Assembly: GCA_964567285.1 (NCBI GenBank)
Contig: CAZMLO010000002.1
Coordinates: 140,150-204,149, forward strand
Direction of reading: 5' to 3'
Length of the DNA stretch: 64,000 nucleotides
DNA from: an uncultured Gammaproteobacteria bacterium
GTDB lineage: Bacteria > Pseudomonadota > Gammaproteobacteria > JAIEPX01
A model generated the notes under the pieces. The model was not told the DNA's origin and made no database searches. It saw nothing but the letters and a program-made list of their open reading frames with translations. A program made the translations under genes and the position numbers. Positions 405 through 25,428 of this stretch are shown here, piece by piece (positions within the stretch are counted from its first letter, which is position 1; every line of letters begins with the position of its first letter).

Positions 405-751
405 TCTAAGGCTCCTCGTTTCCACTCATAAATGAAACCAACCACTAAAACCGCTAAAAAAACCATCATCGCAGCAAAACCTAAAAATCCAATTTTGCGC
501 AGCGCGACTCCCCAGGGGAATAAAAAAGCGGTTTCTAAATCAAAAATGATAAAAAGGATCGCGACTAAATAATAACGAACATCGAAAGGAATTCGAGCAT
601 CTTCAAAGGCTTCGAATCCACATTCATAAGGAGAATTTTTTGCTTGATTGGGTTTGTGCGCGCCAAAAATAGCACCAAGCAGCATCGGAGCGGCCGCGAA
701 AATAACACCGAAGGCTAAAAAAATTAAAATGGGTAAATAGTTCTGTAACAT
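395..751 (-). CDS. nuoA: NADH-quinone oxidoreductase subunit A
   Basis: The ORF translation ([15 protein letters not shown]...[40 protein letters not shown]) is a typical NuoA of about 118 aa. The start is chosen at the internal Met (coordinate 751) rather than the longer ORF, which would overlap the tRNA. Confidence 0.85.
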
Positions 752-775
752 ACCATCCCCTATAGTTACCAACTT

Positions 776-862
776 TGGTGCCGAAGGTCGGACTCGAACC
801 GACACGGCCTTACGGCCACTGCCCCCTCAAGACAGCGTGTCTACCAATTCCACCACTTCGGC
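776..862 (-). tRNA. leuU: tRNA-Leu (anticodon GAG), class II with long variable arm
   Basis: Reverse complement reads GCCGAAGTGGTGGAATTGGTAGACACGCTGTCTTGAGGGGGCAGTGGCCGTAAGGCCGTGTCGGTTCGAGTCCGACCTTCGGCACCA. It has a 7-bp acceptor stem, an anticodon loop CTTGAGG (GAG), a long variable stem-loop, a GGTTCGAGTCC T-arm and a CCA end. It lies directly downstream of secG, as in E. coli secG-leuU. Confidence 0.85.
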
Positions 863-868
863 AATTAT

Positions 869-1237
869 CTAATTAGGCGTCTCAGGAAGTTTTTCGGCAG
901 GTGCAGAACTCACCGGCACTTTCTTCTCTGATTCTTTCGTTACGGGAACTGAGGGTGCTGAAACCGTTTTATGTATAGGCGTTGGCGTTACAATTGCCCC
1001 TTTGGCATGTGTAGACACCATATACGTTAAACCTAAACTGGTCAGAAAAAATATTCCCGCTAAAAGCCCTGTTACTTTCACTAAAAAGGGTGTAGATCCC
1101 GCACTACCAAACATGGTGTTGGATGCCCCACTACCAAAAGCAGCGCCTACATCAGCCCCCTTACCATGCTGTAAAAGCACTAAGGCCACTAAACTAATAC
1201 AAACGAGTACATGTAAAACTAAAATCAACTGTTGCAT
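869..1237 (-). CDS. secG: preprotein translocase subunit SecG
   Basis: MQQLILVLHVLVCISLVALVLLQHGKGADVGAAFGSGASNTMFGSAGSTPFL matches the SecG N-terminal consensus. The start is taken at the internal Met so the overlap with tpiA is only 13 nt. There is an Ala/Pro/Val-rich C-terminal tail. Confidence 0.85.
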   Translation of the reverse strand: MQQLILVLHVLVCISLVALVLLQHGKGADVGAAFGSGASNTMFGSAGSTPFLVKVTGLLAGIFFLTSLGLTYMVSTHAKGAIVTPTPIHKTVSAPSVPVTKESEKKVPVSSAPAEKLPETPN

Positions 1238-1983
1238 AACTGCGCTATATCCAAAAAATGTTGACAATCTAACGATGCTCCGCCGACCAAGCCGCCATCT
1301 ATATCGGGCTGCGCCATCAATTCCGCGGCGTTGTCGCGTTTAACGCTGCCACCATATAAGATCCGGAGGTTTTTGGCAAGCATTTCGTCCCTTTTTCCAA
1401 CCTGATCCCGCAAAAACTGATGAACAGCCTGCGCCTGCTCTGGGGTTGCTGTCTGCCCCGTCCCAATGGCCCATACGGGTTCATAGGCCACAACAACGTT
1501 ATTGAGGGACTTCAGCCCCTTTTCCCCATCCAAAATCGCATTGAGTTGCCGCTCAACCACCTCCAAAGTCTGCCCGGCCTCTCGCTCCTTCAGAGTTTCA
1601 CCCACACAAATAATAGGCTTCAAACCCGCTTCAATAGCCCGATCAAACTTAGCGGCAACAATCGCGTCAGTCTCACCATAGAGCTGCCGCCGCTCAGAAT
1701 GACCAATAATCACATACTCACAACCAAATTCTGCCACCATAGAAGCCGAAACCTCACCCGTAAACGCGCCATTGCGCTCATGGCTTATATTCTGAGCACC
1801 CCAAGCAATACCGGTATCGCTAAGAATTCGCTGAATCTGATCTAAATAAACAAAGGAAGGGAACACCACTAACTCAACCCCTTGAGCCTTCGAAGCCCCC
1901 GCCACCACCCCATTCACCAATGCCGCCGCCTCCACCCGAGACCCCAACATCTTCCAATTCCCTGCCACCATTGCCCGACGCAT
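1225..1983 (-). CDS. tpiA: triosephosphate isomerase
   Basis: Translation AGNWKMLGS...VIIGHSERR...EPVWAIGTGQTATPEQAQAVHQFLR...ILYGGSV is a canonical TIM. Confidence 0.9.
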   Translation of the reverse strand: MRRAMVAGNWKMLGSRVEAAALVNGVVAGASKAQGVELVVFPSFVYLDQIQRILSDTGIAWGAQNISHERNGAFTGEVSASMVAEFGCEYVIIGHSERRQLYGETDAIVAAKFDRAIEAGLKPIICVGETLKEREAGQTLEVVERQLNAILDGEKGLKSLNNVVVAYEPVWAIGTGQTATPEQAQAVHQFLRDQVGKRDEMLAKNLRILYGGSVKRDNAAELMAQPDIDGGLVGGASLDCQHFLDIAQLCNS

Positions 1984-2054
1984 AAAATCCTCCGTCCTTT
2001 AAATCCACAATGAAAGAAATTATCCATTCTAAGCCCAGAAAATCAACCTTTAGC

Positions 2055-2081
2055 TTGGGGTTTTATTTTGGGGTTTACAAT
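2055..2081 (+). promoter_or_regulatory. candidate sigma70 promoter of trpR (TTGGGG at 2055-2060, 15-nt spacer, TACAAT at 2076-2081)
   Basis: Hexamers read directly in the divergent tpiA/trpR intergenic region. The spacing is sub-optimal at 15 nt. Confidence 0.3.
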
Positions 2082-2087
2082 ACTGGT

Positions 2088-2110
2088 GTAATGATGTACC
2101 ATTACGTAAT
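2088..2110. promoter_or_regulatory. imperfect palindrome GTAATGATGTACCATTAC plus TTACGTAA immediately downstream of the putative trpR -10; candidate autoregulatory operator
   Basis: 6-bp inverted arms GTAATG/CATTAC around a GTAC-containing core, followed by the perfect palindrome TTACGTAA. The position overlaps the predicted transcription start, as expected for a repressor site. No CTAG core like the E. coli trp operator is present. Confidence 0.25.
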
Positions 2111-2136
2111 TATTATTCAATGATACGAGGATATTT

Positions 2137-2427
2137 ATGAAAGACAGTAATGACGAAGGTGGTTGGTGGCGGTTTTTAGCGCTGTGTCTAGAAACTCGAA
2201 CTACTGGTCGGCTGGATAGTTTTTTTGATCTTTTTCTCACGCCCGAGGAAAAAAAGGATCTAACGAATCGATATCTGATTGTACAAGAGTTACTCAAAGG
2301 TGAGCTAACTCAACGAGAGATTGCCTCTGAACTGCAGGTGAGTATTGCCAATATCACGCGCGGATCAAATGGCATTAAGCGGATTGGCGATGATTTGAGA
2401 AATTTTTTAATTAAACGATTAAAATAG
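2137..2427 (+). CDS. trpR: Trp operon repressor TrpR
   Basis: WWRFLALCL...LFLTPEEKKDLTNRYLIVQELLKGELTQREIASELQVSIANITRGSNGIKR aligns along its length with E. coli TrpR (…[49 protein letters not shown]). It is 96 aa. A/T-rich SD precedes the start. Confidence 0.85.
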   Translation: MKDSNDEGGWWRFLALCLETRTTGRLDSFFDLFLTPEEKKDLTNRYLIVQELLKGELTQREIASELQVSIANITRGSNGIKRIGDDLRNFLIKRLK

Positions 2428-2436
2428 TCTCTCACT

Positions 2437-2464
2437 CAAATCGCCAAACCATAATGGCGATTTG
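2437..2464 (+). promoter_or_regulatory. stem-loop (9-bp stem CAAATCGCC/GGCGATTTG, 10-nt loop) between the trpR stop and the trpE RBS
   Basis: Perfect inverted repeat read in the 47-nt trpR-trpE spacer. It ends 1 nt before AGGAG (2465-2469) and 10 nt before the trpE ATG. There is no U-tract after it and no leader peptide ORF. Confidence 0.4.
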
Positions 2465-2474
2465 AGGAGATGAG

Positions 2475-3944
2475 ATGTTTGAATATCTAAATTTTGAACG
2501 CTTTGTTGAACTCGCAGAGAACAACAAACGCATTGTAGTTTATCAAGAAATTGCAGGAGATCGACTAACACCGATCAGTGCTTATTCAGCACTTGCAGAA
2601 CTCTTCACTGATCTAACTCTGCTAGAATCCAATCCTAGAGAACTTCATTTAGGGCGCCATTCATATTTGTGTTTTAATCAGAGCGCCTTAATTAAAGCCT
2701 TTGGCAGAAATATTAGCACTCGCATAGATGATAAAGAAGACTCTTTTATCGGAGATCCTTTTGAAACTCTCAGAGAGTATAAAAACCGTTTCACTGCCAA
2801 AATAGACCATCCACTCTCAGGCTATGCAGGTGGCATGGTTGGTTTTATCAGTTACGATGCAATTCGCCTCATCGAAGAAATTCCGGACCGTCATTATCAG
2901 AAGGATGATATTCCCGATCTATACTTTCGATGTTATGACTACAACATTAGTTTTGATCATCAAACTCAGAAGGTGGTTGTTTCTGTAGTTGCAAATATTC
3001 AAAAGGATGTTGAAGGTGTCTATCAAGATGCTATGAACAAAATACAATTTCTGATCCAGCTGATCAGAAATCATCATGAGCCCTCTAAAGATAATAATCC
3101 TCATCAATCAAACGTTATCACTAAAAATCTTGATGATCAGCGCTTCAAAGAGATGGTTCAAACTGCAAAAGAACATATTATTGCCGGTGATGCATTTCAA
3201 ATCGTTCTCTCAAGAGAATTTAGTGTTAAAACAGAGGCTAAACCTTTTGATATTTACCGATCATTACGCTTCAGTAGCCCTGCTCCATACATGTTTTGTC
3301 TACAATTCGATCATTACTCCATCGCGGGCGCCTCACCGGAGAAATTAGTTTCTGTTCAAAATAGACTTGTTGAAGCACGACCTCTTGCCGGTACTCGACC
3401 CAGAAGTAAATCGATTAGCGATGAAACAATGGCAGCAGACTTGCTGGCGGATGAAAAAGAAATCGCTGAGCATAAAATGTTAGTGGATCTCACACGCAAT
3501 GATATTGGCGCAATAGCGATTCCTGGGAGCGTTAATGTGGTTAAATTATTGGCGGTTGAAAACTTTTCTTCTGTGATGCATTTATCATCCACTGTTCAGG
3601 GAATATTACGCGATGGCTTTGATGCTATCGATGCTCTAAAAGCTACTTTTCCTGCCGGAACACTGAGTGGCGCTCCCAAAATTCGAGCTATGGAAATTAT
3701 TGATGATTTAGAAAGCACACGCCGAGGATTTTATGGTGGAGCTGTTTGTGCTTTTGATAGTTTGGGTAACTTAGAAAGCTGTATTGGTATTCGCACAGCG
3801 GTGATTAAAAATTCAACTGCAGTGGTTCGTGCCGGTGCTGGGATAGTGTTTGACTCAGATCCTCAAAAAGAAGCGGATGAAACCTTTCATAAAGCACGGT
3901 CGATTCTACAAGGTGTTCTGATGACAGAGGAGTTATACTCATGA
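2475..3944 (+). CDS. trpE: anthranilate synthase component I
   Basis: 489 aa. Contains LSREF...PYMF, GASPE, LAGTRPRS and GAVCAFDSLGNLESCIGIRT, the chorismate-binding enzyme signature. A GAGGAG RBS precedes it. Its stop overlaps the trpG start (ATGA). Confidence 0.95.
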   Translation: MFEYLNFERFVELAENNKRIVVYQEIAGDRLTPISAYSALAELFTDLTLLESNPRELHLGRHSYLCFNQSALIKAFGRNISTRIDDKEDSFIGDPFETLREYKNRFTAKIDHPLSGYAGGMVGFISYDAIRLIEEIPDRHYQKDDIPDLYFRCYDYNISFDHQTQKVVVSVVANIQKDVEGVYQDAMNKIQFLIQLIRNHHEPSKDNNPHQSNVITKNLDDQRFKEMVQTAKEHIIAGDAFQIVLSREFSVKTEAKPFDIYRSLRFSSPAPYMFCLQFDHYSIAGASPEKLVSVQNRLVEARPLAGTRPRSKSISDETMAADLLADEKEIAEHKMLVDLTRNDIGAIAIPGSVNVVKLLAVENFSSVMHLSSTVQGILRDGFDAIDALKATFPAGTLSGAPKIRAMEIIDDLESTRRGFYGGAVCAFDSLGNLESCIGIRTAVIKNSTAVVRAGAGIVFDSDPQKEADETFHKARSILQGVLMTEELYS

Positions 3945-4528
3945 TTTTAATCATCGATAACTATGATAGCTTTACCTACAATTTGTATCAATACATCGCA
4001 CCGTTGTGTGATTCAGTGTATGTAGTGCGCAATGATAAAATTAGCATTACCGAAATTGAAGAATATCAACCAAAAGGTATTATTATATCACCAGGTCCTG
4101 GCAGACCTGAAAATGCAGGTATCTGCTTAGAATTAATTCGACATTTTTCAGATAGTATTCCTATTTTGGGAGTCTGCCTCGGGCATCAGGCAATCGCTGT
4201 GGCCTTTGGTGGAGAGGTAGTCGGTGCCAACGACATTGTTCATGGCAAAAATTCACTCACGTATCACAATGGATCAGCATTATATCAGGGTCTGCCACTT
4301 CCTTTCTCAGCGGGGCGGTATCATTCATTGCTAGTCGACAAGAATAGTTTACCGACTAGTCTAAAAATTGATGCTGAAAACAGTGAGGGCCTGATCATGG
4401 GAATAAGCCATCATACTAACCCGACATTCGGTGTGCAATTTCATCCTGAATCCATTCTAACAGCAGAGGGTATTAGCTTACTCAAAAACTTCCTAACGCT
4501 TTGCAATAAAGAGGAGGCCCTATGTTAA
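3941..4528 (+). CDS. trpG: anthranilate synthase component II (class I glutamine amidotransferase)
   Basis: MILIIDNYDSFTYNLYQY...PILGVCLGHQAIA...HPES is a GATase1 triad motif set. It is 195 aa. Confidence 0.9.
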   Translation: MILIIDNYDSFTYNLYQYIAPLCDSVYVVRNDKISITEIEEYQPKGIIISPGPGRPENAGICLELIRHFSDSIPILGVCLGHQAIAVAFGGEVVGANDIVHGKNSLTYHNGSALYQGLPLPFSAGRYHSLLVDKNSLPTSLKIDAENSEGLIMGISHHTNPTFGVQFHPESILTAEGISLLKNFLTLCNKEEALC

Positions 4529-6252
4529 AAGAAATCATTCAAAAATTAACCCTACAAAATAATCTCAGTATTGAGGAAATGAAATTAGCTATGTATGAAA
4601 TTCTGAGTACCGATAACGAGGCACAAATTGCCGCTTTTTTGAGTCTATTAAGAGCAAAAGGAGAAACGGTTGAGGAAATAGTAGGCCTGGTCGCCATACT
4701 GCGTGATCAGATGATTCAGGTTCAGCCTCGATCTCAAGTATTAGATATAGTGGGAACAGGGGGTGATGGCTTTAACACGATCAATATCTCAACTGCATCG
4801 GCGCTATTAGCAGCCTGCTGTGGCGTACGGGTGGTTAAACATGGCAATCGAAGTGTCTCATCACTCTGTGGTTCTGCCGATGTACTTGAAGCACTAGGAA
4901 TTAATATTCATCTCAGTGCTGAGGAGGTCGCTGATAATGTCGAAAACCACAATTTCGGATTTTGTTATGCCCCTAATTTTCATCCGGCTCTTTCCAAAGT
5001 AAAAGCAATACGTCATAAATTAGGTATCACTTCATCGTTTAATTTGATTGCACCGATGCTGAATCCAGCTAATGCTGAATTTCTGATGATTGGGGTTGCC
5101 GACAAAAAAGCAATGAACATTATTGCTGACAGTCTGCTCCACGTTAAACCAAAACGCGCTATTATCTTCCACTGCCAAGGACTTGATGAACTTTGTGGTG
5201 TAGGCCCTATTGATATTATTGAACTTAATCATTCGGTCAAATCATCTTATCAACTTGACCCTATAGACTATAATATTGCTCGATGTACTATAGATGAACT
5301 ACGAGGTGAATCAGCTAAGGAAAATGCCCATCAGATAATGGAAGTTTTTAATGGAGTACCCAATGCCATAGCAGATTCTCTTATTTTAAATGCAGGATTT
5401 GCATGTTATCTTTACGGAATCACTGAATCTCTTGAAAAGGGTATACAACTAGCCAGACAAAAACTCTCCGATGGTTCCGCAGCTCAACTTGTTCTGACAC
5501 TAAAAAACCAAAATAAATTAGAAAAAATACTGTCTAATAAAGCTAAAGAGGTCGATGAGCTGAACAACCGACAAAAGAAAAGTCTTAAGAGGGCCCTCAG
5601 TTCTCCTGGATTATCCATTGTTAGTGAGATAAAGCGAAAATCGCCCTCCAATGGCATACTGAACAATGTAGTTGATCCAACCCTTTTAGTGGAATACTAC
5701 CTTGAAGGGGGTTCAGCCTCAATTTCCGTACTCACCGATACTAAATTTTTTTCTGGATCACTCGTAGATCTTAAAATCATTTCAGATAAACTCAAAGATA
5801 GTCCCACACCGATACTCAGAAAAGATTTTATTATAGAAAAATCGCAGATAGATGAATCCGCCCACTTTGGTGCCGATGCTGTATTATTAATCGTCACAGT
5901 TCTTAAGGAAAGAACAAAAGAATTTTTGGATTATACCGAGTTAAAAGGTCTAGAAGCCTTAGTTGAAGTACACACTCTCGTTGAACTAAAAATTGCGATT
6001 GATGCTGGAGCAAAAATCATAGCCATCAATAATCGAAATTTGAAAACATTTGAAGTTGACATCAATATCTCTCTTGATCTTATAAAACACATCCCATCAG
6101 ATATTATCAAAGTATCAGCATCTGGGATACGCACACCCGATCATTTCAAGACGATGAATGATGCTGGTTTTGATGCTGTATTAGTGGGTGAAGCACTGAT
6201 GAGCTCTGATGATCCCGTTCTCATGATAAAACAATTGCGAGGAGACTTATGA
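4522..6252 (+). CDS. trpDC: bifunctional anthranilate phosphoribosyltransferase / indole-3-glycerol-phosphate synthase (TrpD-TrpC fusion)
   Basis: The N-terminal ~330 aa has GTGGDGFNTINISTASALLAACCGVRVVKHGNRSVSS (TrpD). A K/N/E-rich linker of about 35 aa follows. The C-terminal ~240 aa has IVSEIKRKSPSNGIL...LRKDFII...NNRNL...SGI (TrpC). A GAGGAGG RBS lies at 4511-4517. Confidence 0.9.
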   Translation: MLKEIIQKLTLQNNLSIEEMKLAMYEILSTDNEAQIAAFLSLLRAKGETVEEIVGLVAILRDQMIQVQPRSQVLDIVGTGGDGFNTINISTASALLAACCGVRVVKHGNRSVSSLCGSADVLEALGINIHLSAEEVADNVENHNFGFCYAPNFHPALSKVKAIRHKLGITSSFNLIAPMLNPANAEFLMIGVADKKAMNIIADSLLHVKPKRAIIFHCQGLDELCGVGPIDIIELNHSVKSSYQLDPIDYNIARCTIDELRGESAKENAHQIMEVFNGVPNAIADSLILNAGFACYLYGITESLEKGIQLARQKLSDGSAAQLVLTLKNQNKLEKILSNKAKEVDELNNRQKKSLKRALSSPGLSIVSEIKRKSPSNGILNNVVDPTLLVEYYLEGGSASISVLTDTKFFSGSLVDLKIISDKLKDSPTPILRKDFIIEKSQIDESAHFGADAVLLIVTVLKERTKEFLDYTELKGLEALVEVHTLVELKIAIDAGAKIIAINNRNLKTFEVDINISLDLIKHIPSDIIKVSASGIRTPDHFKTMNDAGFDAVLVGEALMSSDDPVLMIKQLRGDL

Positions 6253-8021
6253 ATACTCAAGTAAAAATATGCGGGATTACTGACCCTAAAATCGCTAAGA
6301 CAATAGCAATGAAAGGTGTCAACTATATTGGTATTATTTTTCATGAGGAGTCTAAACGAAAAGTAGATATCGCTTTGGGCAAAGCCATTGCTGATTCTGC
6401 TAAAGGCGGTGGCGCTATACCAGTTGCAGTCTTTGGTGAACATTCAGGCATCATGATGCAGGAAATTTGTAATGCTACTGGAATTTCAGTGGTACAATTA
6501 CATGGAAAGCTCTCACAGGCTGAGCATCACACTCTAACGAAAGATATTCAGAAAATATTTGTCTTCAAAGTCGATCAGAAAGGTAATATCAACGATAATA
6601 TCGACGAACGTATCCAGATGATGGATCCAGAACAAGATTCCGTACTCTTTGATAATCTTGAAAAAAATTCTATACCTATTCTTCTTACACCTAAAATCAT
6701 TCGCATCGCTAGAAAATATAAAACTTTTATCGCGGGTGGTATCAATAAAAGCAATATAAGAAGTCTTATCGATCAATGTCAGCCCTATGCCATAGACCTC
6801 TGCTCAGGCGTTGAAAATTCACGGGGTGAAAAGAAATTGGAGATGATAAACGAGATTCTTAACGAAACCGCACGTTATGGTCGCTATGGCGGGAGATATA
6901 TGCCAGAATCATTGATGGCACCTCTGACGCAACTCGCCTCTGAATTTCATCACATCAAAAATGATCCGCAATTTCAAAATGAATTCAACTCACTGTTAAA
7001 AGAGTATGGGGGAAGACCGACCCCATTAACAGAAGTTAAACGTTTCCAACTATTTGCAAAGGGTCCAAGAATTTTTTTAAAAAGAGAAGATTTGTTACAC
7101 ACCGGAGCTCATAAAATCAATAATGCCCTTGGCCAATGTCTGCTCGCAAAAAAAATGGGCAAAGTCCGTGTTATCGCAGAAACGGGCGCCGGCCAACATG
7201 GCGTTGCTACTGCGACTGCTTGTGCCCGCCTTGGACTCGAGTGTATCGTCTATATGGGTGCCATCGATCTGATTCGACAAGCGCCTAATGTCGATAAAAT
7301 GCGCTTATTAGGTGCGAACGTAATTGCTGTTGAAGATGGCTCTAAAACATTGAAAGAGGGCGTGAATGCAGCACTTCGAGACTATGCCAGCAGTTTTCAA
7401 AATACCCATTATTGCTTAGGTTCAGCCCTAGGCCCTCATCCCTATCCTGAAATGGTTGCTTATTTTCAATCTGTGATTGGTCAAGAAACACAGGAGCAAT
7501 GCCACACCATTTTTGGAAAATCTCCAGATCTGATCATCGCTTGCATAGGTGGTGGATCCAATGCTATTGGTATTTTCTCGGCCTTTCTTAAGCAAGATGT
7601 TCAACTGGTTGGCGTTGAAGCAGGTGGAACAGGATTACAACATGCTGCTCGATTTCAAGGAGGAAGTCCTGGCATTTTACATGGCTGCATGAGCTATCTT
7701 CTGCAAGATGAAAACGGGCAAGTTCAGAATACTCATTCTATTTCTGCCGGTCTTGATTATCCAATGATAGGACCTCAACATGCTCATCTTTATGAAACAA
7801 AGCGCGTTAAATACAATTTATGCACAGATGATGAAGCACTCCATGCTTTTAAAATATTAAGCCAAACAGAAGGAATTATTCCTGCTTTGGAATCCGCTCA
7901 TGCACTGGCCTATTATTTAAGAGAAGCTCCGAAAATGCACCCTGATAGCATCGTTATCGTTAATTTATCCGGCCGAGGTGACAAAGACATCACACAATTA
8001 GCTAGAAGGGAATTACTATGA
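6249..8021 (+). CDS. trpFB: bifunctional phosphoribosylanthranilate isomerase / tryptophan synthase beta chain (TrpF-TrpB fusion)
   Basis: The N-terminus MNTQVKICGITDPKIAKTIAMKGVNYIGIIF is PRAI. From about residue 210, RYGRYGGRYMPESLM...HTGAHKINNALGQCLLAKKMGKVRVIAETGAGQHGVATA...GGGSNAIG is the TrpB PLP enzyme. An ATGA overlap is present at both ends. Confidence 0.9.
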   Translation: MNTQVKICGITDPKIAKTIAMKGVNYIGIIFHEESKRKVDIALGKAIADSAKGGGAIPVAVFGEHSGIMMQEICNATGISVVQLHGKLSQAEHHTLTKDIQKIFVFKVDQKGNINDNIDERIQMMDPEQDSVLFDNLEKNSIPILLTPKIIRIARKYKTFIAGGINKSNIRSLIDQCQPYAIDLCSGVENSRGEKKLEMINEILNETARYGRYGGRYMPESLMAPLTQLASEFHHIKNDPQFQNEFNSLLKEYGGRPTPLTEVKRFQLFAKGPRIFLKREDLLHTGAHKINNALGQCLLAKKMGKVRVIAETGAGQHGVATATACARLGLECIVYMGAIDLIRQAPNVDKMRLLGANVIAVEDGSKTLKEGVNAALRDYASSFQNTHYCLGSALGPHPYPEMVAYFQSVIGQETQEQCHTIFGKSPDLIIACIGGGSNAIGIFSAFLKQDVQLVGVEAGGTGLQHAARFQGGSPGILHGCMSYLLQDENGQVQNTHSISAGLDYPMIGPQHAHLYETKRVKYNLCTDDEALHAFKILSQTEGIIPALESAHALAYYLREAPKMHPDSIVIVNLSGRGDKDITQLARRELL

Positions 8022-8785
8022 AACATTTATTTAATAAACGCCCCGCATTTGTTGCATACCTTACAGCAGGACAGAAAAGTTTAAATTTTACCAAAGAAGC
8101 AGCCATTGCGTTGGCCGATGGAGGTGTTGACTTGCTAGAAATTGGTGTGCCTTTTTCTGACCCTATTGCCGATGGCCCCGTTATCGCACAGGCGATGAAT
8201 GAGGCACTGTCTCACTCTGTTAGACTCCACTCTGTTCTAGATATCATTCATGAAATTAAACAAGTTAGAAATATTCCTATTGTACTCTTCACCTACTTCA
8301 ACCCACTCTTTAAAACAGGAATTGATAACCTAATGAATGAGGCGAAGCAAGCAGGGATCGATGCTATTTTAACTGTCGATTTACCATTGGAAGAATCATC
8401 AGACTATTTCTCGTCTGCTAAGAATGCTGCCATCGATATTATTAGTCTTATCTCACCCTCAACAGAACCTGAGCGCATTCTAAAAATCTGTGAAAATCAC
8501 CCTGCTATTCTTTATTATGTTTGTCGTAATGGCATAACCGGACTTAAAGATAATCTTCCTTCAGATTATGTTGACAAACTTTCACAAATAAAATCTATTA
8601 CGAAAATACCGATCATCTCAGGCTTTGGTATTTCAACGAAAAAAATGGCCTCATCTGTACTAAGATGTGCCGATGGTTTTGTGGTGGGCTCTCTGTTTGT
8701 CAAAGCAATATCAGAGGGAGCATCACCTTTAGCACTTCAACAATTAGCTATCAACTTAGATCCAAGAGAGGGGGTAATATCATGA
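8018..8785 (+). CDS. trpA: tryptophan synthase alpha chain
   Basis: 255 aa with AYLTAG...[18 protein letters not shown]...GFGIS motifs. Its stop overlaps the start of the DAHP synthase gene (ATGA). Confidence 0.9.
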
Positions 8786-9627: not shown

Positions 9628-10904
9628 AAAGTTACAAAATTAGGCCTTCAAAGCTCAGGGGAAGTATCAGTGCATCCCCCTCAAAATCGCAGAGTATGAG
9701 GGCCATTTTATTCGCGACCATGGCTAGCGGCAAAAGTATTATCAAAAACTGCTTAAATTCTCCTGATATTGATGCAATGATTAAGGCCTGCAGAAAATTA
9801 GGCGCTGAAATTAGTTGCAGGCAAAATACCCTTGAAATTATTGGTGTTGCCGGCAAACCCTCTATACCTGATGATGTGATTGATGCGGGTAATTCAGGAC
9901 AAGTATTACGTTTTGTCGCCGCTATTGCTTCCTTAACGAAAGGCACAACCGTGCTTACAGGTGATCATTCTGTGCGTTACAATCGCCCTGTCCGACCTTT
10001 AATGGATGGCCTCTCTCAATTAGGTGTTGAATGCTACAGCACGAAAGATGATGATCACGCTCCTCTGGTTGTGCGGGGACCTCTTCAACCTGGTATCACT
10101 TTTCTCGATGGAGCCGATTCTCAACCCGTGTCTGGCCTTTTGATTGCTGCGGCTTTTCTAAACGGCATTACACAAATTCATGTCAAAAACCCCGGCGAAA
10201 AGCCCTGGGTGAATTTAACACTGAGCTGGTTAGACCGCTTCGGCATTCAATACACCAATGAAAATTTTGAAAAAATCACTGTGGCAGGCAATCCTATTAT
10301 ACAAGGTTTTGAATACACAGTATCCGGTGATTTTAGCTCAATCGCTTATCCCATTGTGGCTGCACTACTGACACAATCGGAAATTACCGTGAATAATATT
10401 GACATGAATGATGCCCAAGGCGATAAAAAAATTATTGCTGTACTAAAAAAAATGGGCGCCATTATCGAAGTGAATGAAAATAAATTATTAGTTAAATCCA
10501 GCGGCACCCTAAAGGGATGTGAAATTGATGTTAACGATTTTATTGATGCTATCACTATTCTAGCAGTTGTAGGTTGTTACGCTTCAGGCACAACCACATT
10601 GACCAACGCGGCTATTGCCCGAAAAAAAGAGAGTGATCGATTGTCGTCTATTAGCGCAGAGTTAAAAAAAATGGGTGCTGATATTAGTGAAACTCATGAT
10701 AGCCTTATCATTCAAGGTAAACCCCTGAGCGGTTCCACATGCCTATCCTATCACGACCACCGTATCGCCATGTCTTGTACTATTGCAGCACTCGGCGCTG
10801 ATAAGGAAACAATTATACAAGATACTGCCTGCGTCACCAAAAGTTACCCCGATTTTGTTGCGGACATGCAGCGACTGGGATGTGAGATGGAGGTGATTGA
10901 ATGA
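9624..10904 (+). CDS. aroA: 3-phosphoshikimate 1-carboxyvinyltransferase (EPSP synthase)
   Basis: 426 aa with an EPSPS fold: [37 protein letters not shown]. Confidence 0.9.
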
Positions 10905-11419
10905 ACTTGATCTTATGCGGCTATCATTGTTCTGGAAAAACAACTATCGCCAAAGCCTTTTCAATAAAATACGATTACCATTATATTGATACTGACGATC
11001 TTGTTGCTCGAGCAAAAGGCCTAAAAGATTCTCGTGCCGTTCATACACTATTAGGTGAAGAGGACTATCGTTCTTTTGAAAAAAGCATTGTGCATTCCCT
11101 AAAAGATATCAATAATACCATAATAGCCACTGGAGGGGGTGTTTTATTAAATAGTGAAAACACGCACCATCTCAAGACATTGGGTAAAATAATTTATTTA
11201 TACGTTGAAACAGAGACACTACGGCAAAGAATCTTAGAAAAAAAATCACTCCCTAACTTTATCCGTGAATCCTCCTTCGATGAAGATTTCAAACGCTACA
11301 TCGATAGCCGCAAAACACTCTATGATTCTGAAGCAGACATTAAACTCAATGTAACAGAAAAATCTGTCGAAGAAATCTTATCCTTAATTAACCAGTACAG
11401 GTCTGATCATGGCATCTAA
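10901..11419 (+). CDS. aroK: shikimate kinase
   Basis: 172 aa. It has the Walker A motif GYHCSGKTT, a DTD motif and GGG...L, typical shikimate kinase architecture. It sits within the aro block. Confidence 0.8.
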   Translation: MNLILCGYHCSGKTTIAKAFSIKYDYHYIDTDDLVARAKGLKDSRAVHTLLGEEDYRSFEKSIVHSLKDINNTIIATGGGVLLNSENTHHLKTLGKIIYLYVETETLRQRILEKKSLPNFIRESSFDEDFKRYIDSRKTLYDSEADIKLNVTEKSVEEILSLINQYRSDHGI

Positions 11420-12491
11420 TTCTTTCGGTAATATTTTTAGAATCACGACATGGGGCGAATCCCATGGAAAAGGAATCGGCGTCGTTATCGATGGCTGCCC
11501 TGCAGGTATCGAGATATCGGATACTGATATAAATACTGCTTTAGCCTTACGCGCACCTGGCACTAATCCTTTTACCTCACCTCGTAAAGAACCCGACATT
11601 GCGGAAATATATTCTGGTATTTTCGAGGGAAAAACCACGGGTACCCCACTCTCGATCGTTATCATGAATAAAGATTCTGATTCAAGCAAATATGAGCCCA
11701 TTAAGAATTTGCTACGGCCTGGCCACGCTAACTTTACTTATCTCGAAAAATACGGCTGCTTCGATTATCGCGGTGGCGGCAGAGCTTCTGCTAGAGAAAC
11801 TGCTTGCCGAGTAGCCGCAAGTGCGGTTGCTAATAAAATATTAGCGCACGAAAAAATCGAAGTGATTGCTTATATAAAAAGTATTGGCAACATCGATATG
11901 TCACTCGAGCATCTTGATCTTAGTATGATCAAAACTCAAACTCAGAGTAGCTCCATATTTTGCCCTGATACAGTTTCCGCAGAAAAAATGATGGCAGCTA
12001 TAACAGCCGCCAAAGAAGAAGGTGATTCGCTTGGTGGCATTGTGGAATTTTTAGTGCTCAATATGCCTGTAGGTTTGGGTGATCCCATTTATGAAAAATT
12101 AGAAGCCAATTTAGCCAAAGCGATGATGTCGCTTCCTGCAACCAAGGGTTTTGAAATTGGCGAAGGTTTTGCAGCTACGCGCATGAAAGGTTCAACACAT
12201 AACGATGAATTCAGCACTAAAAGAATAACTAGCACTAATCACGCCGGTGGAACTTTAGCCGGGATTTCAACAGGGATGCCCTTAATGGGCAGAGTGGCTT
12301 TTAAACCCACTTCGAGTATCAACAAAGTACAGAATACTGTTGATGATCAGGGCCAACAACAAAAATTTAAATTACCAGAAGGCTCTCGACATGATCCCTG
12401 CGTCGCTATCCGAGCAGTACCCGTCGTCAGTGCCATGTGCAGTTTGGTAATTGCGGATGCCTTACTCATGAACCGATCGTGCAAATTGTGA
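11409..12491 (+). CDS. aroC: chorismate synthase
   Basis: FRITTWGESHGKGIGVVIDGCPAG...RPGHANFTY..KYG..DYRGGGRASARET is canonical. Confidence 0.9.
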   Translation: MASNSFGNIFRITTWGESHGKGIGVVIDGCPAGIEISDTDINTALALRAPGTNPFTSPRKEPDIAEIYSGIFEGKTTGTPLSIVIMNKDSDSSKYEPIKNLLRPGHANFTYLEKYGCFDYRGGGRASARETACRVAASAVANKILAHEKIEVIAYIKSIGNIDMSLEHLDLSMIKTQTQSSSIFCPDTVSAEKMMAAITAAKEEGDSLGGIVEFLVLNMPVGLGDPIYEKLEANLAKAMMSLPATKGFEIGEGFAATRMKGSTHNDEFSTKRITSTNHAGGTLAGISTGMPLMGRVAFKPTSSINKVQNTVDDQGQQQKFKLPEGSRHDPCVAIRAVPVVSAMCSLVIADALLMNRSCKL

Positions 12492-12561
12492 GAATGAATA
12501 TGACTGCCAACTACTTGCCCCTAAATGAAAGGTCCCTATTTCACCTAAAAGAGGAGAAATA

Positions 12562-13650
12562 ATGACACATCCTTTCGTAATTGGTGAAAATCTGCTGTTG
12601 AGTCAACACATCATTGAGCTTTGCCCAAGAGCCTGTTCGCAATTCGTGATTATCACGGATGATAATGTTCAGCCTCTTTACGCTGCCAAATTAAAAGAAC
12701 ACCTCAGACTCAATGATTTAAACTCACACATCATCACTATTCCAAATGGTGAGGCATCAAAATCAAGAGAAATGGTTGCGAAAATTCAAGATCAACTCTT
12801 AGATTTAGGTTATGGACGCGATACTTGCATTCTGGCTTTAGGCGGTGGAGTTATCACCGATTTAGCCGGGTATGTTGCCGCAACTTATTGTCGTGGCATT
12901 CCCGTGATTTACTTGCCCACCACTTTATTAGCCATGGTGGATGCAGCCCTGGGTGGAAAAACAGGTGTTAATACACCACACGGTAAAAATCTTATTGGCG
13001 TTTTTGCTCAACCTAGAGCTATTTTATCAGATATCAGCACTTTAAAAACTTTAGCTGAAGCTGAATTTCGCTTCGCCTTTGCTGAAATTATAAAACATGC
13101 CATAATATTTGATCATGAATATTTCGATACCCTATTGAAGCATGCTGATGCTCTCAAAAACCGTGACTTAAATCTTCTCAAAACAATTATTCAACGCAGT
13201 TGCGAAATAAAATCGAAAATAGTCTTAGAAGATGAAAAAGATCAGGGCATCCGCACAATCTGTAATTTTGGCCATACTATCGGGCACGCACTGGAATTTG
13301 TTTCAGATTATACCCTCAATCATGGACAAGCCGTCGCGATCGGGATGATGATAGAGTCATTTATCGCCACACAGATGGGCATATTATGCAACGCTGATTT
13401 TGATAAAATAAAAGAGATTCTGTCTCTTTTCGATCTCACCGCATCCCTACCCTGCACTACCACACCAGAGAAGATCAAAAACGCTTTGATCTTAGATAAA
13501 AAATCTCGGGAAAAAAGCCCAAGATTCATTTTAATTCAAAGCATAGGCAAGGTATATAAAGAACAATCCAATTACTCTCACCCCGTGGATCAGATTATTT
13601 TAGACAAAGCACTGGATTATTTAACCACCGAATTCATGGAGCGATCATGA
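12562..13650 (+). CDS. aroB: 3-dehydroquinate synthase
   Basis: 362 aa with LGGGVITDLAGYVAATYCRGIP, GGKTGVN and NFGHTIGHALE metal site motifs. A 70-nt gap precedes it, and GAGGAG lies at the RBS. Confidence 0.9.
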   Translation: MTHPFVIGENLLLSQHIIELCPRACSQFVIITDDNVQPLYAAKLKEHLRLNDLNSHIITIPNGEASKSREMVAKIQDQLLDLGYGRDTCILALGGGVITDLAGYVAATYCRGIPVIYLPTTLLAMVDAALGGKTGVNTPHGKNLIGVFAQPRAILSDISTLKTLAEAEFRFAFAEIIKHAIIFDHEYFDTLLKHADALKNRDLNLLKTIIQRSCEIKSKIVLEDEKDQGIRTICNFGHTIGHALEFVSDYTLNHGQAVAIGMMIESFIATQMGILCNADFDKIKEILSLFDLTASLPCTTTPEKIKNALILDKKSREKSPRFILIQSIGKVYKEQSNYSHPVDQIILDKALDYLTTEFMERS

Positions 13651-15011
13651 TTGTAACGATAATTCAACAAAAAAATACTGCTGATTTATACGGTCAGTAT
13701 CTACGCTGCAGCGATTTATCTGAAGCTTTCGAATTTCGTCTGGACTACTTAGATATTATAGATATTGAAGCTCTCTGTGAATTGAGATCTAAAATTCATA
13801 AGCCGATTATTTTGACCTTAAGACCCGACCCAAATTCTCAGAATGAAGAAAAAAGACTCGCAACACTGATGGAATTAGGCAGAGCAAACCCCGATTATGT
13901 GGATATAGAACACAGTGTTAGCCCTAGATTTATCGAAGAATTCCATCATAAATACTCTGAAATCAAGATCATACGATCCTACCACAATTTTGACGAAACA
14001 CCACAAGACCTAAAATCTATCCTGATTCAATTAGAACATCCATTCTGTGACATTTATAAAATAGTCACTACAGCAACTTCTAGTCTCGACAATTTAACGG
14101 TACTCCACTTTCTAAAAGATCACTCTAAATCTTATAACATAGCAGCACACTGCATGGGTGAATTAGGAACTCCTTCTCGGGTTTTATCCCCCATTCTGGG
14201 CAGTCAATTACAATATGTAGCCGCAGATGAAACACAAATACCAGCACCTGGCTGCTTTTCACTCAATACTTTATTACAAAATTACCAGGGAAAAAACATT
14301 GATCATCTCACTAAGATTTATGCTTTGCTGGGAAACCCGGTAGAACAAAGCCCGGGCCACATTTTTCACAACAACATTTTTCAAAAATCCGCGGCAAAAT
14401 CCGTGTACGTCAAATTCAAGCTCACAAACGAAGAGCTTCCTCTATTTTTAAAACAAATAACAGGTTTGCCCTTTCATGGATTTAGCGTCACGATTCCCTT
14501 AAAAAGAGATATAATCCAATTCATCGATCTTTTTGAGAACGATTCTGACCAAATCGGAGCTATCAACACAATTCGTGTCGAGAATAATCAATTATTAGGA
14601 CTCAATACCGATGGCGCAGGAGCACTGAATGCTCTTGAAAGAATTCAGCGGGTAAAATCGAAAAATGTTTTAATTATAGGTGCCGGCGGCTCAGCTAAAG
14701 CGATTGCTTATGAAGCCCAAAAAAGAGGGGCAGCCTCCATTGTGATTATCGATCGAACTCTAAAAGGTCCGGATGATTTATCAAATCCAGACTCTTTCGA
14801 TTTTGTTATCAACGCCCTACCCCCTGCAATCGATTACCCCATCACACCTCAATTTAGCACAACCGCCGTTTTCATGGATATCAATTACCACCAACCCGAG
14901 AGCCGATTAAAATCCCTTGCCCTTGCCGCTGGGTGTACACTCGTGGATGGCTATGAAATGTTCGTTGAACAGGCATTGCTACAACAGGACTATTGGATTT
15001 CATCTCAATAA
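13647..15011 (+). CDS. aroDE: bifunctional type I 3-dehydroquinate dehydratase / shikimate dehydrogenase (AroD-AroE fusion)
   Basis: The N-terminal half has the type I DHQase signature CMGELGTPSRVLSPILGS. The C-terminal half is shikimate DH (YALLGNPVEQSPGHIFHN, NTDGAGALNAL, a Rossmann GAGGSAKA). It has an ATGA overlap with aroB. Confidence 0.85.
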   Translation: MIVTIIQQKNTADLYGQYLRCSDLSEAFEFRLDYLDIIDIEALCELRSKIHKPIILTLRPDPNSQNEEKRLATLMELGRANPDYVDIEHSVSPRFIEEFHHKYSEIKIIRSYHNFDETPQDLKSILIQLEHPFCDIYKIVTTATSSLDNLTVLHFLKDHSKSYNIAAHCMGELGTPSRVLSPILGSQLQYVAADETQIPAPGCFSLNTLLQNYQGKNIDHLTKIYALLGNPVEQSPGHIFHNNIFQKSAAKSVYVKFKLTNEELPLFLKQITGLPFHGFSVTIPLKRDIIQFIDLFENDSDQIGAINTIRVENNQLLGLNTDGAGALNALERIQRVKSKNVLIIGAGGSAKAIAYEAQKRGAASIVIIDRTLKGPDDLSNPDSFDFVINALPPAIDYPITPQFSTTAVFMDINYHQPESRLKSLALAAGCTLVDGYEMFVEQALLQQDYWISSQ

Positions 15012-15014
15012 CTT

Positions 15015-16178
15015 TCAAGTACTCCAATTCTTCGAGAGGATATCTAAATACTCGCCTTCTTTTTCGTCTTTAGGCATATTGTGTTTTCCCTCATGAATAT
15101 ATTTTGCTATTTTTCTTGCATCGTTGGAGTTAAAAAATGACTGAGATAAATGTTGCTTTACTTTTGGGTCTGGCTCTTGCGAATCAAACCAGTTTTCCCG
15201 AAATAGATAATCAGCCAAATGGACGAAGTATTCCATTTGTTGTTTTGTCATAGGAGGATAATCTTCATCAAGATTTCCATCGTAGGGAATCATACTAACT
15301 TCACAGCCAGAGTTTAGAGCAAACTGTAGAATTCCCAGCAAATGACCTACACCAACAGCCGATAGATTATCACCCACCACGAGAAATTCTTTCAGCTTCT
15401 CACAAAATATCCGATCTCGTTTAGTAACGTTTTCATCGTAAATTTTTTGAGCCAGAACAGGAAGTCTTTCACGGAATTTTTTAGTTATAATATTATGTTT
15501 TAAACAAGCGGATATTAACGATAAATTTCCGCTTTTATATGCTTTTAGCAACTGCCCGAGTATTTTATCAAGGCAAACACTGTCTGTATTTAATAGATCA
15601 GGTAATGATAATTTAAAAACCTGAAGTTGCTCATCGAATGTTAAATATAGCCCTTGAAGTAGGGAGTTAACATCAGTTGCTGATTCTAGCCCTGTTATTT
15701 TCTTTGAATTTTCTCTAGCATACTCTGCTAATAATACATCAGTGCCTTTCTTAACATCATCAACCATTTTTTTAGACATACTCAGCATTTGTAACAAATG
15801 CAGCGGTGTCATCATGTTCATCATTTCTTCTAATTCTCTAACTTCTAATTTTTCATTGCCTGTATATGACATCAATTTTACACATATTGCTGCAATTTGC
15901 TCATTGGATAAATTCGCATTTTTAAAAAAATCATAACACCCAGGGTTATCATATCGCCACAAAAGACAAGCCATATCATCTACAATCGTGTCATCAGGTG
16001 ATTTTTCTAAAATTAATGTAGATACTTTGCCACACACCTTTTTCACGATATTTGGCAGCTCCGAAGAACTGTGGAAAGTTCCATATAGATAGGTTACAGC
16101 TCCCTCGGGTGTTTTCACTTTATACAGATTCGATAACGATATTCTGTTTGTATCTTTTTTTTCTTGCTTGTGATCCAT
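15015..16178 (-). CDS. TraB/GumN family protein (possible secreted/effector-like protein)
   Basis: 387 aa with YLYGTFHSSSE near the N-terminus and AVGVGHLLG near the C-terminus, the two conserved blocks of the TraB/PrgY/GumN family. The acidic C-terminus is KDEKEGEYLDILSKNWST. It converges on aroDE with a 3-nt gap. Confidence 0.55.
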   Translation of the reverse strand: MDHKQEKKDTNRISLSNLYKVKTPEGAVTYLYGTFHSSSELPNIVKKVCGKVSTLILEKSPDDTIVDDMACLLWRYDNPGCYDFFKNANLSNEQIAAICVKLMSYTGNEKLEVRELEEMMNMMTPLHLLQMLSMSKKMVDDVKKGTDVLLAEYARENSKKITGLESATDVNSLLQGLYLTFDEQLQVFKLSLPDLLNTDSVCLDKILGQLLKAYKSGNLSLISACLKHNIITKKFRERLPVLAQKIYDENVTKRDRIFCEKLKEFLVVGDNLSAVGVGHLLGILQFALNSGCEVSMIPYDGNLDEDYPPMTKQQMEYFVHLADYLFRENWFDSQEPDPKVKQHLSQSFFNSNDARKIAKYIHEGKHNMPKDEKEGEYLDILSKNWST

Positions 16179-16429
16179 TTAAATCTCCAAGTACTCTTCA
16201 GTTAATCATTCAATTGGGTATGGGCTGCTTATTACGATGCATTTTCAACCTCTTTACCCACTAGTAACTTTAAGTATTACTTATGAACATGAAATTGTCA
16301 AAGCACCCTATTTTAGGGACATCTAGACCATATTCCTAAAGTTTGGGATACTTACAGATATAACATATGAGCGTCGAATTTACAGACTAGAATATTTTCA
16401 TTTAATCGAATAATACTATTGAAGACACG

Positions 16430-17770
16430 CTATTGTATTTGAGAAATTGTTCGAGCCAAACCTTGGGCCAATGATTCTACGAGTTCGATACTTTGCCCTT
16501 CTACCATTACTCGCACTACAGGTTCGGTGCCTGAAGCACGCAATAATACACGGCCACTGTTTCCTAATTTGCTTTCTGTATCACGAATCGCTTCTTGTAA
16601 GTGCGCGCTTTTGAGATCAAAGGATTTTGGCGTAGGGATGTTCAGTAAAACTTGAGGGTATTTTTTCATACCATTTTTTAATTCGGCTAAATTTTGACCT
16701 GATTCGATCACTGCACATAAAACCTGTAAGGCAGAAATAATTCCGTCGCCGGTGGTAGATAAAGCCAAATGCACAATGTGGCCCGACGATTCTCCACCAA
16801 TTTGCCAGCCTTTTTGTTTGAGTCTTGTCATTACGTGTCGATCGCCCACAGCCACTCGTTCGAATGGAATACTGAGTGAAGCCAGCCCTTCTTCAAAACC
16901 TAAGTTGGTCATCGATGTGCCAACAATACCGCCTTGGAGTTTATTAATTTTTTTAAGGTGACGGGCAATAATAAATAGCAGTTGATCACCGTCAACAATT
17001 TCTCCGGTATGATCAACCATAATAACCCGATCGCCATCACCATCGAAAGCAATTCCTATATCAGCATTTTGTTCAAGCACAGTAGCTTGTAAATCATGGG
17101 GATGCGTTGAACCGCAAAGTGCATTAATATTCAATCCATTAGGTCGATTAGAAATTTCATGGACTTCCGCACCCAATTCTCGAAATACTGCTGGAGCAAC
17201 GTGATAAGTTGCGCCATTCGCACAATCGACCACGATTTTTAAACCATTAAAATTAATGCGAGAAGGAACTGTACTTTTACAAAATTCGATATAGCGACCA
17301 GCTGCATCCACAACGCGCACCGCTTTACCTAATTTTGCAGAATCCACTGTCTGCATGGGCTTTTCGAGTTGTGCCTCAATTTGGAGTTCAATATCATCCG
17401 GTAATTTAAATCCTTCGGAGGAGAAAAATTTTAATCCATTATCTTCAAAACCATTATGAGACGCACTGATCACAATGCCTGCACAAGCTCTGAGTGTTCG
17501 AGTTAAATAGGCAATGGCAGGCGTCGGCATAGGGCCCAATAAATGAATATCCATTCCTGCAGCAGATAATCCCGCTTCTAAAGCAGATTCCAACATGTAG
17601 CCAGAAATACGCGTATCTTTCCCGATCAATACTTTTCCACGCGTTGCGGTGCCTAAAATTTTTCCAATAGCCCAACCAAGTTTAATCACAAACATAGGGT
17701 TAATTAAAGAATCGCCGACTTTCCCTCGAATTCCGTCAGTACCAAAATATTGTTGTGTTGTCATGATCAA
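16430..17770 (-). CDS. glmM: phosphoglucosamine mutase
   Basis: [10 protein letters not shown], the phosphoserine loop [14 protein letters not shown], and DGDGDR are present. Confidence 0.9.
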
Positions 17771-25389: not shown

Positions 25390-25428
25390 TTTCTTCTTCA
25401 AACTGCCAAACGAGGTGTCAGTTATAAT

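Follow-up and report, generated by a model that had tools for sequence, protein, structure and literature searches.

How does a complete set of tryptophan genes come to lie, on the opposite strand, inside a conserved string of housekeeping genes? The question is raised by 64,000 nucleotides (nt) of DNA from an uncultured Gammaproteobacteria bacterium (GCA_964567285.1, contig CAZMLO010000002.1, positions 140,150 to 204,149 of the forward strand), the whole of which is called the window here. In this window a block of trp and aro genes stands between glmM and tpiA, two members of the string ftsH-folP-glmM-tpiA-secG-tRNA-Leu. We consider an ancient placement the likely explanation. In the ancestor of a small gammaproteobacterial lineage, a composite trp/shikimate operon would have come to lie antisense at the glmM|tpiA boundary of the string. 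The features of the region are listed below (positions in the window; a dot joins fused genes).

3-404, minus strand: nuoB, running past the window edge; 97% identical to NuoB of a relative (L090)
~395-748 (open reading frame listed to 805), minus strand: nuoA (NCBIfam PRK07756, E 1e-35), with nuoB the distal end of the string
776-862, minus strand: tRNA-Leu(GAG) (ARAGORN; Rfam 50.4 bits), a conserved member of the string
869-1267, minus strand: secG (TIGR00810, 85 bits)
1225-1983, minus strand: tpiA (TIGR00419, 241 bits), left flank of the putative insertion; GC 0.52 versus about 0.41
1984-2136, no strand: left junction, the divergent tpiA/trpR intergenic region, with a promoter-like site and a palindrome
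2137-2427, plus strand: trpR (TIGR01321, 96.8 bits, cut-off 67; PF01371), first gene of the block
2427-2476, plus strand: hairpin in the trpR-trpE spacer (RNA fold)
2475-3944, plus strand: trpE (NCBIfam)
3941-4528, plus strand: trpG (NCBIfam)
4522-6252, plus strand: trpD•trpC fusion (NCBIfam), fused also in L085
6249-8021, plus strand: trpF•trpB fusion (NCBIfam PRK13803, 719 bits), fused also in L085
8018-8785, plus strand: trpA (NCBIfam)
8782-9627, plus strand: class I-beta (B. subtilis-type) DAHP synthase (TIGR01361, DAHP_synth_Bsub, 379 bits)
9624-10904, plus strand: aroA (NCBIfam, Pfam)
10901-11419, plus strand: aroK (NCBIfam, Pfam)
11409-12491, plus strand: aroC (NCBIfam, Pfam)
12562-13650, plus strand: aroB (NCBIfam, Pfam)
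13647-15011, plus strand: aroD•aroE fusion (NCBIfam PRK09310 the best model; PF01487 and PF08501 in one protein of 454 amino acids)
15015-16178, minus strand: TraB/PrgY/GumN gene (PF01963, 68.7 bits, cut-off 26.8, E 1e-18)
16179-16429, no strand: right junction, the traB-glmM intergenic region of 251 nt, with a promoter-like site for traB at 16301-16273 on the minus strand
16430-17770, minus strand: glmM (NCBIfam)
17774-18598, minus strand: folP, a Sul-type dihydropteroate synthase (NCBIfam; PDB comparison)
18614-20770, minus strand: ftsH (NCBIfam); glmM-folP-ftsH form the proximal part of the string

The trp-aro block consists of 12 plus-strand genes in 12.9 kb (2137-15011), and the flanking genes of the string are all on the minus strand. 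It encodes TrpR and all enzymatic activities from phosphoenolpyruvate (PEP) and erythrose-4-phosphate (E4P) to tryptophan, and nothing else. Its trp module has the order trpR-trpE-trpG-trpD•C-trpF•B-trpA-DAHPS (DAHPS, DAHP synthase), with trpR on the same strand and immediately upstream of trpE. The aroA-aroK-aroC-aroB-aroD•E genes supply the remaining six activities of the shikimate pathway. At ten of the 11 junctions the genes overlap by 4-11 nt or are parted by a short spacer; every junction between neighbours from trpE through trpA is overlapped by 4-7 nt, and the only gaps are of 47 nt (trpR-trpE) and 70 nt (aroC-aroB). Almost all genes of the block would be translationally coupled. The sequence-only reading had mapped these genes correctly, and all that it named were recovered in place by the open reading frame listing, NCBIfam, Pfam, ARAGORN and Rfam; the Rfam scan of the region gave the tRNA and no other match. 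It had also described a 14-kb block of the trp-aro genes together with the TraB gene. The trp-aro part stands, and the TraB gene is a separate unit. The glmM-traB-aroDE junction was found in three independent assemblies from other sequencing runs (L001-L003), and it is therefore not an assembly artefact or a chimeric contig.

To place the block, the surroundings of glmM were compared. A scan with GlmM gave at least 80 loci, mostly gammaproteobacterial, and 77 of them had enough downstream sequence to be informative. The loci listed were only 58-65% identical to the GlmM of the window and the relatives at 83-88% came from protein look-ups, so the isolation of the lineage cannot be inferred from the scan. 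Among the matches listed, tpiA lay downstream of glmM in 57 of the 77 informative loci (within about 300 bp in 51), secG followed glmM directly, as in E. coli, in two, a glmM-tpiA gap of 0.6-4 kb was present in six, and trp, aro or TraB genes followed glmM in none. The tRNA-Leu(GAG) gene came after secG in all loci checked (nine others), Pseudomonas and Legionella included. The synteny that had been taken as established by the sequence-only reading was thus confirmed. Compared with the conserved gammaproteobacterial string ftsH-folP-glmM-tpiA-secG-leuU(-nuo), the string of the window is complete, ordered and co-oriented, and it differs by an interruption of 14.4 kb from glmM to tpiA. Because its two halves are co-oriented at this distance, a single inversion is excluded, and the arrangement is most simply described as an insertion or a translocation.

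The glmM|tpiA boundary appears to be a recurrent insertion point, or landing site, across several lineages. The gap was occupied by the pstSCAB phosphate-transporter operon in L029 (7842-11843) and by an orphan gene of 929 amino acids on the opposite strand in a Legionella sp. (L028, 11333-14480). In the own clade of the window, an ankyrin/patatin protein and TerC were found there (L092, 4633-9823; L100, 3160-9854).

Members of this clade were found by protein look-ups, and for two of them (L085 and L087) the tpiA side lies outside the available sequence. The metagenome-assembled genome GCA_019748175.1 shares 86% identity in FtsH, 83% in GlmM and 74% in TpiA with the window. One of its contigs (L092) has the order ftsH-folP-glmM-[1481-amino-acid ankyrin/patatin protein]-[TerC, opposite strand]-tpiA-secG-tRNA-Leu-nuoA...N. 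Another contig of the same genome (L088) carries hemN-hydrolase-aroA-aroK-aroC-aroB-aroDE-x-ssb-MFS (MFS, major facilitator superfamily), with no trp genes and no DAHPS. The hemN...ssb setting of the aro operon was also seen in L096-L098. TerC, not trpR, is divergent beside tpiA in four lineages (L090, L094, L092 and L100/L101; TpiA 73-80% identical to that of the window). The neighbouring genes in the relatives include those for ankyrin, patatin, Fic, Ras-like GTPase and NACHT proteins, and they suggest a Legionella-like intracellular lifestyle.

By parsimony, the block between glmM and tpiA would be the derived state. We take this direction for three reasons: the outgroups and L092, from within the clade, agree on the order of the string; the lineages with TerC beside tpiA bracket the block-bearing ones by TpiA identity; and the separate aro home between hemN and ssb is conserved over lineages more diverged (68% concatenated identity) than those of the trp-aro subclade (77-82%). 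The interruption of a conserved string, which had been proposed from the sequence, was upheld by the 57 of 77 loci with tpiA after glmM and by the order in L092. It had been conceded in advance that the arrangement could be ancestral if it were common to close relatives and no intact glmM-tpiA junction were left in the clade. The first half of this concession describes what was found, as the arrangement is shared with L087 and L095 and a strictly intact junction was not seen in the sampled members. The ancestral state does not follow from it, since the string is retained in L092, with no more than two unrelated genes in the gap and the aro genes elsewhere, and since TerC stands beside tpiA in four lineages. 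The gap was probably already open, with TerC and with or without the ankyrin/patatin gene, when the block arrived.

It is conceivable, and in our view highly unlikely, that no insertion took place at all. The string would then have been broken and brought together again by successive inversions or rearrangements, or the arrangement would be ancestral and the order in L092 secondary. Such an account fits the lack of an intact glmM-tpiA junction in the clade, and the neighbourhood of the block can be rearranged, as L085 shows. It is at odds with string halves that keep their order and orientation 14 kb apart, which a single inversion cannot yield, with the agreement of the outgroups and L092, and with the TerC|tpiA state of four lineages that bracket the block-bearers by TpiA identity.

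Three relatives carry the block or traces of it. L087 (AroDE 75%, GlmM 88% and FtsH 89% identical to the window) reads trpF•B-trpA-DAHPS-aroA-K-C-B-DE, then 6 nt, a convergent TauE-family gene on the minus strand, and glmM-folP-ftsH on the minus strand. This is the right-hand arrangement of the window, except that another gene occupies the TraB slot. L085 (AroDE 73%) has the complete trp-aro block with both fusions, and the downstream genes are unrelated. The closest TpiA (86%) is that of L095 (Logan SRR1027651), where tpiA-secG is 86% identical at the nucleotide level. Upstream of tpiA in L095 (1-602), two decayed pieces of the DAHPS gene are colinear with window positions 9539-9374 and 9164-9067. 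The pieces are 74-78% identical, with an internal deletion, and the stretch corresponding to window 2003-9066, from trpR through trpA into the 5' part of the DAHPS gene, is absent from L095. These colinear remnants beside tpiA therefore indicate that L095 once had the same left-hand adjacency and that the pathway is now being lost. The remnant looks like the reductive loss of tryptophan synthesis reported for Coxiella. A tree of the concatenated Aro proteins had the topology ((L085,L087),window),(L096,L088), with L099 as the outgroup. Read by parsimony, this topology implies that the block already adjoined glmM before the three trp-aro lineages diverged and that L085 lost the adjacency later.

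The composition of the block was compared with that of the rest of the window. The relative synonymous codon usage (RSCU) was correlated at r=0.917 (0.913 in a split-half control) and the 4-mer profile at r=0.968 (0.937-0.969 for control chunks of 13 kb). Between the window and L087, protein identity was 67-89% in the block and 68-89% in the flanks. A foreign composition of the block was rejected, because its codon usage and 4-mers are indistinguishable from those of the rest of the window. The event is old, because the composition is native and the arrangement is common to diverged relatives and is decaying in one of them (L095); the age that the sequence-only reading had drawn from matching base composition was confirmed by both measures, which behaved like the controls. 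The compositional outlier of the region is tpiA (GC 0.52), not the block. The tpiA gene is GC-rich clade-wide (0.47-0.52 versus 0.38-0.45 in the surroundings in L090, L092, L094, L095, L100 and the window). Its GC content at third codon positions in the window is 0.53 versus 0.35, and the bias is gene-specific as well as clade-wide.

The TraB gene beside the block had been read as a hint of a conjugative element, a family often found on such elements flanking one side of the insertion. The gene is convergent with aroDE, their stop codons lying 3 nt apart, and its protein has no signal peptide. Residues T34, H36, E58, R254, G276 and H279 do not vary among 14 homologues, distant ones included, and the conserved residues of PF01963 are GTxH...E...R...GxxH. 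It is a bona fide PF01963 member, yet not conjugation machinery. The protein is nearly an orphan: a search of 1.8 billion representative proteins gave 22 matches at E<1e-3, of which the best was 29% identical. A single close homologue (62% identity) is present in L084, where hemB follows it. Among 72,556 plasmids there was one match, at 23% identity, on a non-mobilizable megaplasmid of Legionella lytica. In L087 the slot is filled by TauE. On these grounds (TauE in the slot, the hemB neighbour and the one weak plasmid match) TraB was rejected as a marker of conjugation, and the gene is an independent, fast-evolving and lineage-specific occupant of a variable slot beside glmM.

The locus was also searched for other traces of mobility. 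No recombinase or integrase, relaxase, transfer or type IV secretion system (T4SS) genes were present among the 13 genes between tpiA and glmM, all of which were assigned with NCBIfam and Pfam. The search for direct and inverted repeats in window 1-21000 gave short, low-identity chance pairs only, and no repeat family joined 1984-2136 with 15011-16429; the att-like repeats suspected at the junctions were thus absent. The tRNA-Leu(GAG) gene lies 1.1 kb from the insertion junction, beyond secG and tpiA, and there is no insertion at its 3' end. Genomic islands and integrative and conjugative elements are recognized by transfer genes, att repeats or a tRNA site, and deviant composition, and the block has none of these. 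No mobile-element machinery is involved or left at the locus. A recent insertion by a conjugative or integrative element, with TraB as its vestige, is hard to credit for us. The PF01963 gene does abut the block, and the gap takes foreign genes in other lineages. Against this stand the absence of att-like direct repeats and of integrase, relaxase and T4SS genes, the native composition, an arrangement common to relatives at 75-88% protein identity, the TauE gene in place of TraB in L087, the TraB homologue by hemB in L084, and the near absence of plasmid relatives. Moreover, the 3 nt between the aroDE and traB stops leave no room for the end of an element.

The preferred reading of an ancient placement requires a source for the block, and the trp module has known counterparts. 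In Simkania negevensis, one operon reads trpR/trpE/trpG/trpD/trpC/trpF/trpB/trpA/DAHPS(I-beta), with 18 nt after trpR and the other genes overlapping in translational coupling (Bonner, Byrne & Jensen, PMC3937554). The trp genes and trpR of Coxiella burnetii are close homologues of those of Simkania, and lateral transfer was proposed (PMC3937554); the proposal was later repeated with Piscirickettsia added (PMC4916741). In C. burnetii, TrpF•TrpB is fused, trpR is detached, an operonic DAHPS is lacking, and trpG and trpD are pseudogenes (PMC3937554). The Simkania operon and the window are alike in the leading trpR on the same strand, the order of the structural genes and the class I-beta DAHPS directly after trpA; the spacer after trpR is 18 nt in Simkania versus 47 nt in the window, and the other genes overlap in both. 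Unlike Simkania, the window has fused trpD•trpC and trpF•trpB, a DAHPS without the FXD domain, five appended aro genes and a gammaproteobacterial host. With Coxiella it shares the gammaproteobacterial host and the TrpF•TrpB fusion, for which PRK13803 was the best model in the window, whereas its operon is fully intact, begins with trpR, includes DAHPS and continues into the aro genes. The TrpD•TrpC fusion (anthranilate phosphoribosyltransferase and indole-glycerol-phosphate synthase) matched no bifunctional NCBIfam model, unlike TrpF•TrpB. The fusion may be uncommon.

The sequence affinity of the trp proteins to Chlamydia was gauged against solved structures alone. For the TrpB domain, the chains at 420-432 bits are those that we take to be E. 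coli, Salmonella and Francisella, and the next natural sequences after the best match scored 463 bits. The best match was TrpB of C. trachomatis (6v82_B; PMC8376405), with 524 bits and 62% identity.

The DAHPS of the window is a catalytic core of 281 amino acids, from which the N-terminal FXD domain of about 80 amino acids has been cleanly deleted in frame. FXD (PF18152) is present in the DAHPS of L087 and L085. The protein starts with MILLMKNN...EKYKLVGR in L087 and with MILVGR in the window, and the ATGA overlap with the trpA stop is kept. In related DAHPS enzymes the FXD domain mediates feedback inhibition, and the enzyme of the window is probably free of it. Without FXD, the flux through the pathway would depend on transcription alone.

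The aro module was found as the same operon in L085, L087, L088, L096 and L099. In the chlamydial operon, aroA presumably lies upstream of aroL-aroC-aroB-aroDE. In C. trachomatis, aroL, aroC, aroB and aroDE are in one operon (PMC8409740). The chlamydial aro operon and that of the window are alike in the order aroA-aroK/L-aroC-aroB-aroD•E and in the fused dehydroquinase/shikimate dehydrogenase. They differ in that the aro genes of the window are joined to the trp operon and that its AroDE is only about 37% identical to named Chlamydiota proteins; AroDE of named Chlamydiota and of Parachlamydiaceae were among the homologues at 37% identity. The same operon, unjoined, is present in sister gammaproteobacterial lineages in the hemN...ssb setting. 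A scan of JGI metagenomes with AroDE gave one distant locus, L099 (Ga0209450_10000007, 228-11449). It has tyrP, hisC, tyrA, pheA (chorismate mutase/prephenate dehydratase) and a class I-alpha DAHPS on one strand, and aroA-K-C-B-DE is divergent from them. The aro operon is joined to different aromatic branch operons in different lineages.

The aromatic supraoperon of Bacillus subtilis, aroF-aroB-aroH-trpEDCFBA-hisC-tyrA-aroE, has no trpR (it is under TRAP control) and no DAHPS. It covers only part of the aro steps and includes genes for Tyr and His as well. It resembles the block in that trp genes lie within one unit with genes of the common pathway. The block differs in its gene order, in the absence of hisC, tyrA and aroH, in the presence of trpR and in its completeness from DAHPS to tryptophan, and it does not have the B. 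subtilis-type layout, in which aroF-aroB-aroH precede trpEDCFBA and hisC-tyrA-aroE follow it. In the block, operon types already known are arranged in a new way, and it does not represent a novel kind of system. We read it as a Simkania/Coxiella-type trp operon that would have been fused with the own aro operon of the clade. One module would be the Simkania layout trpR-trp-DAHPS(I-beta) with the TrpF•TrpB fusion of Coxiella, and the other would be the chlamydial-type aro operon.

Alternatively, the complete 12-gene block may have been imported en bloc long ago from another, chlamydia-like or intracellular, lineage and have landed in glmM|tpiA, while the native hemN-ssb aro operon was displaced and lost. 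We regard this as possible, although rather unlikely. The Simkania layout of the trp genes and the nearness of TrpB to Chlamydia among the solved structures would agree with it, no intermediate with trp alone or aro alone in the gap was seen, and the divergence of the subclade's aro genes from the hemN-site operons is about double that expected from the flank genes. The concatenated Aro proteins of the block, however, are 63-65% identical to the hemN-site operons of the clade, versus 49% to the outgroup operon L099 and 37% to AroDE of Chlamydiota. The composition is fully native, and a move within the lineage accounts for the same data with no donor needed. In the subclade, AroDE is about 25 amino acids shorter and has no PF01488 match. 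A search for the empty site of the donor, made with the hemN, hydrolase, ssb, MFS, terC, tauE, epmC and hemB genes of the relatives, gave no match within the 64-kb window. Junction sequences had no homology to those of the relatives past the coding ends, and on the left side homology ended 19 nt upstream of tpiA.

With regard to regulation, a promoter-like site, TTTACA-17-TACCAT, precedes trpR (2074-2102, plus strand), and a perfect 6+6 palindrome, GTAATGATGTACCATTAC, overlaps it at 2088-2105. The E. coli TrpR operator has a 5+8+5 geometry with a CTAG core; the palindrome is alike in geometry and lacks the core. As a perfect match it is unique, and matches with two mismatches are no commoner than chance. 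No second copy was present upstream of the tyrP-like permease or elsewhere. This TyrP/Mtr-family aromatic amino acid permease (20939-22129, plus strand) is divergent from ftsH, lies 6 kb from the block and shares no palindrome with the trpR promoter region. L088 and L099 have similar permeases close to their aro operons. The hairpin between trpR and trpE has a folding energy of -27.3 kcal/mol (z = -7.3), and none of 200 shuffled sequences was as stable. Its core stem is 12 bp long and perfectly paired, a U-tract is lacking, and the outer stem covers the ribosome-binding site (Shine-Dalgarno) of trpE. It may act as an insulator, as a processing or stability element, or in translational control. 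The block would be transcribed from a TrpR-controlled promoter before trpR and be autoregulated as proposed for Simkania.

Several points weigh against the reading of an ancient placement of a two-module, TrpR-controlled operon. No strictly intact glmM-tpiA junction was found in the sampled members of the clade, and the gap may already have been open when the block entered it or took the place of genes there. L085 carries the block without glmM downstream. FtsH, GlmM and FolP would predict only about half of the divergence seen between the aro genes and the hemN-site operons; the -ln(identity) ratios are 1.8-2.5, versus 1.3-1.5 (window versus L087, L088 and L092). This excess could have arisen if evolution sped up after the fusion, or if the block came from a related lineage and did not move within the genome. 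TrpA showed no special chlamydial preference among the solved structures, and TrpA of C. trachomatis has been described as aberrant (PMC8376405). The palindrome is kept as a candidate TrpR operator. A strong hairpin parts trpR from trpE, and expression as a single transcript is putative.

What the block may mean for the history of the operon depends on the direction of transfer. To our knowledge, TrpR is otherwise essentially a gammaproteobacterial protein, and the operon could for this reason have a gammaproteobacterial origin. Tentatively, and with more doubt than belief, we suggest that the lineage keeps the full, intact and native trpR-led trp-DAHPS operon, which otherwise is known only in Simkania and is degraded in Coxiella. 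The operon would have been born in intracellular gammaproteobacteria and passed to the Chlamydiae, opposite to the direction that was published. In this lineage it would have been extended to one unit of 14 activities from PEP and E4P to tryptophan, under tryptophan control via TrpR alone. An intact gammaproteobacterial operon, led by trpR and ended by DAHPS, is in any case added to the story of transfer between Simkania and Coxiella, and the direction of transfer can be tested by phylogenies. On the preferred reading of ancient placement, a complete amino-acid pathway can be built from two existing operons and parked in a housekeeping string without the signature of a mobile element. For annotation, the name TraB/GumN beside a displaced block is no evidence of a conjugative origin.

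The folP gene of the string is of a different type from its syntenic counterparts. Compared with solved structures, FolP of the window scored 240 bits with Sul2 and 230 bits each with Sul3 and Sul1, versus at most 115 bits with every ordinary dihydropteroate synthase. It is 42-47% identical to the Sul enzymes and 26-29% identical to the syntenic FolP of Legionella, Pseudomonas and Thiohalomonas. It has the two-residue insertion called the Sul motif (DPGMGFFLS), which is shared by L087 (10527-11348) and, as GMGYF, by L092 (2173-2997). The Sul motif is found in chromosomal folP of Rhodobiaceae, there also in an ftsH-folP-glmM setting, and of Leptospiraceae, where it confers sulfonamide resistance and the branch stands beside Chlamydiae (PMC6335563). 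The insertion was linked to sulfonamide insensitivity (PMC6335563, PMC10328974). Judged from these similarities, folP of the clade looks like an in-place replacement by a Sul-type enzyme. With an identity of at most 53%, it is too distant to be the direct source of sul1, sul2 or sul3.

Beyond ftsH and the permease, two further groups of genes were seen in the window. An AAA_14/DUF4143 ATPase and a small PIN-toxin module, seen in L001, lie beside the permease at 22231-25400. A cluster at 27996-33692 contains a polyhydroxyalkanoate (PHA) synthase, two short-chain dehydrogenases, an acetoacetate decarboxylase and a patatin-like lipase.

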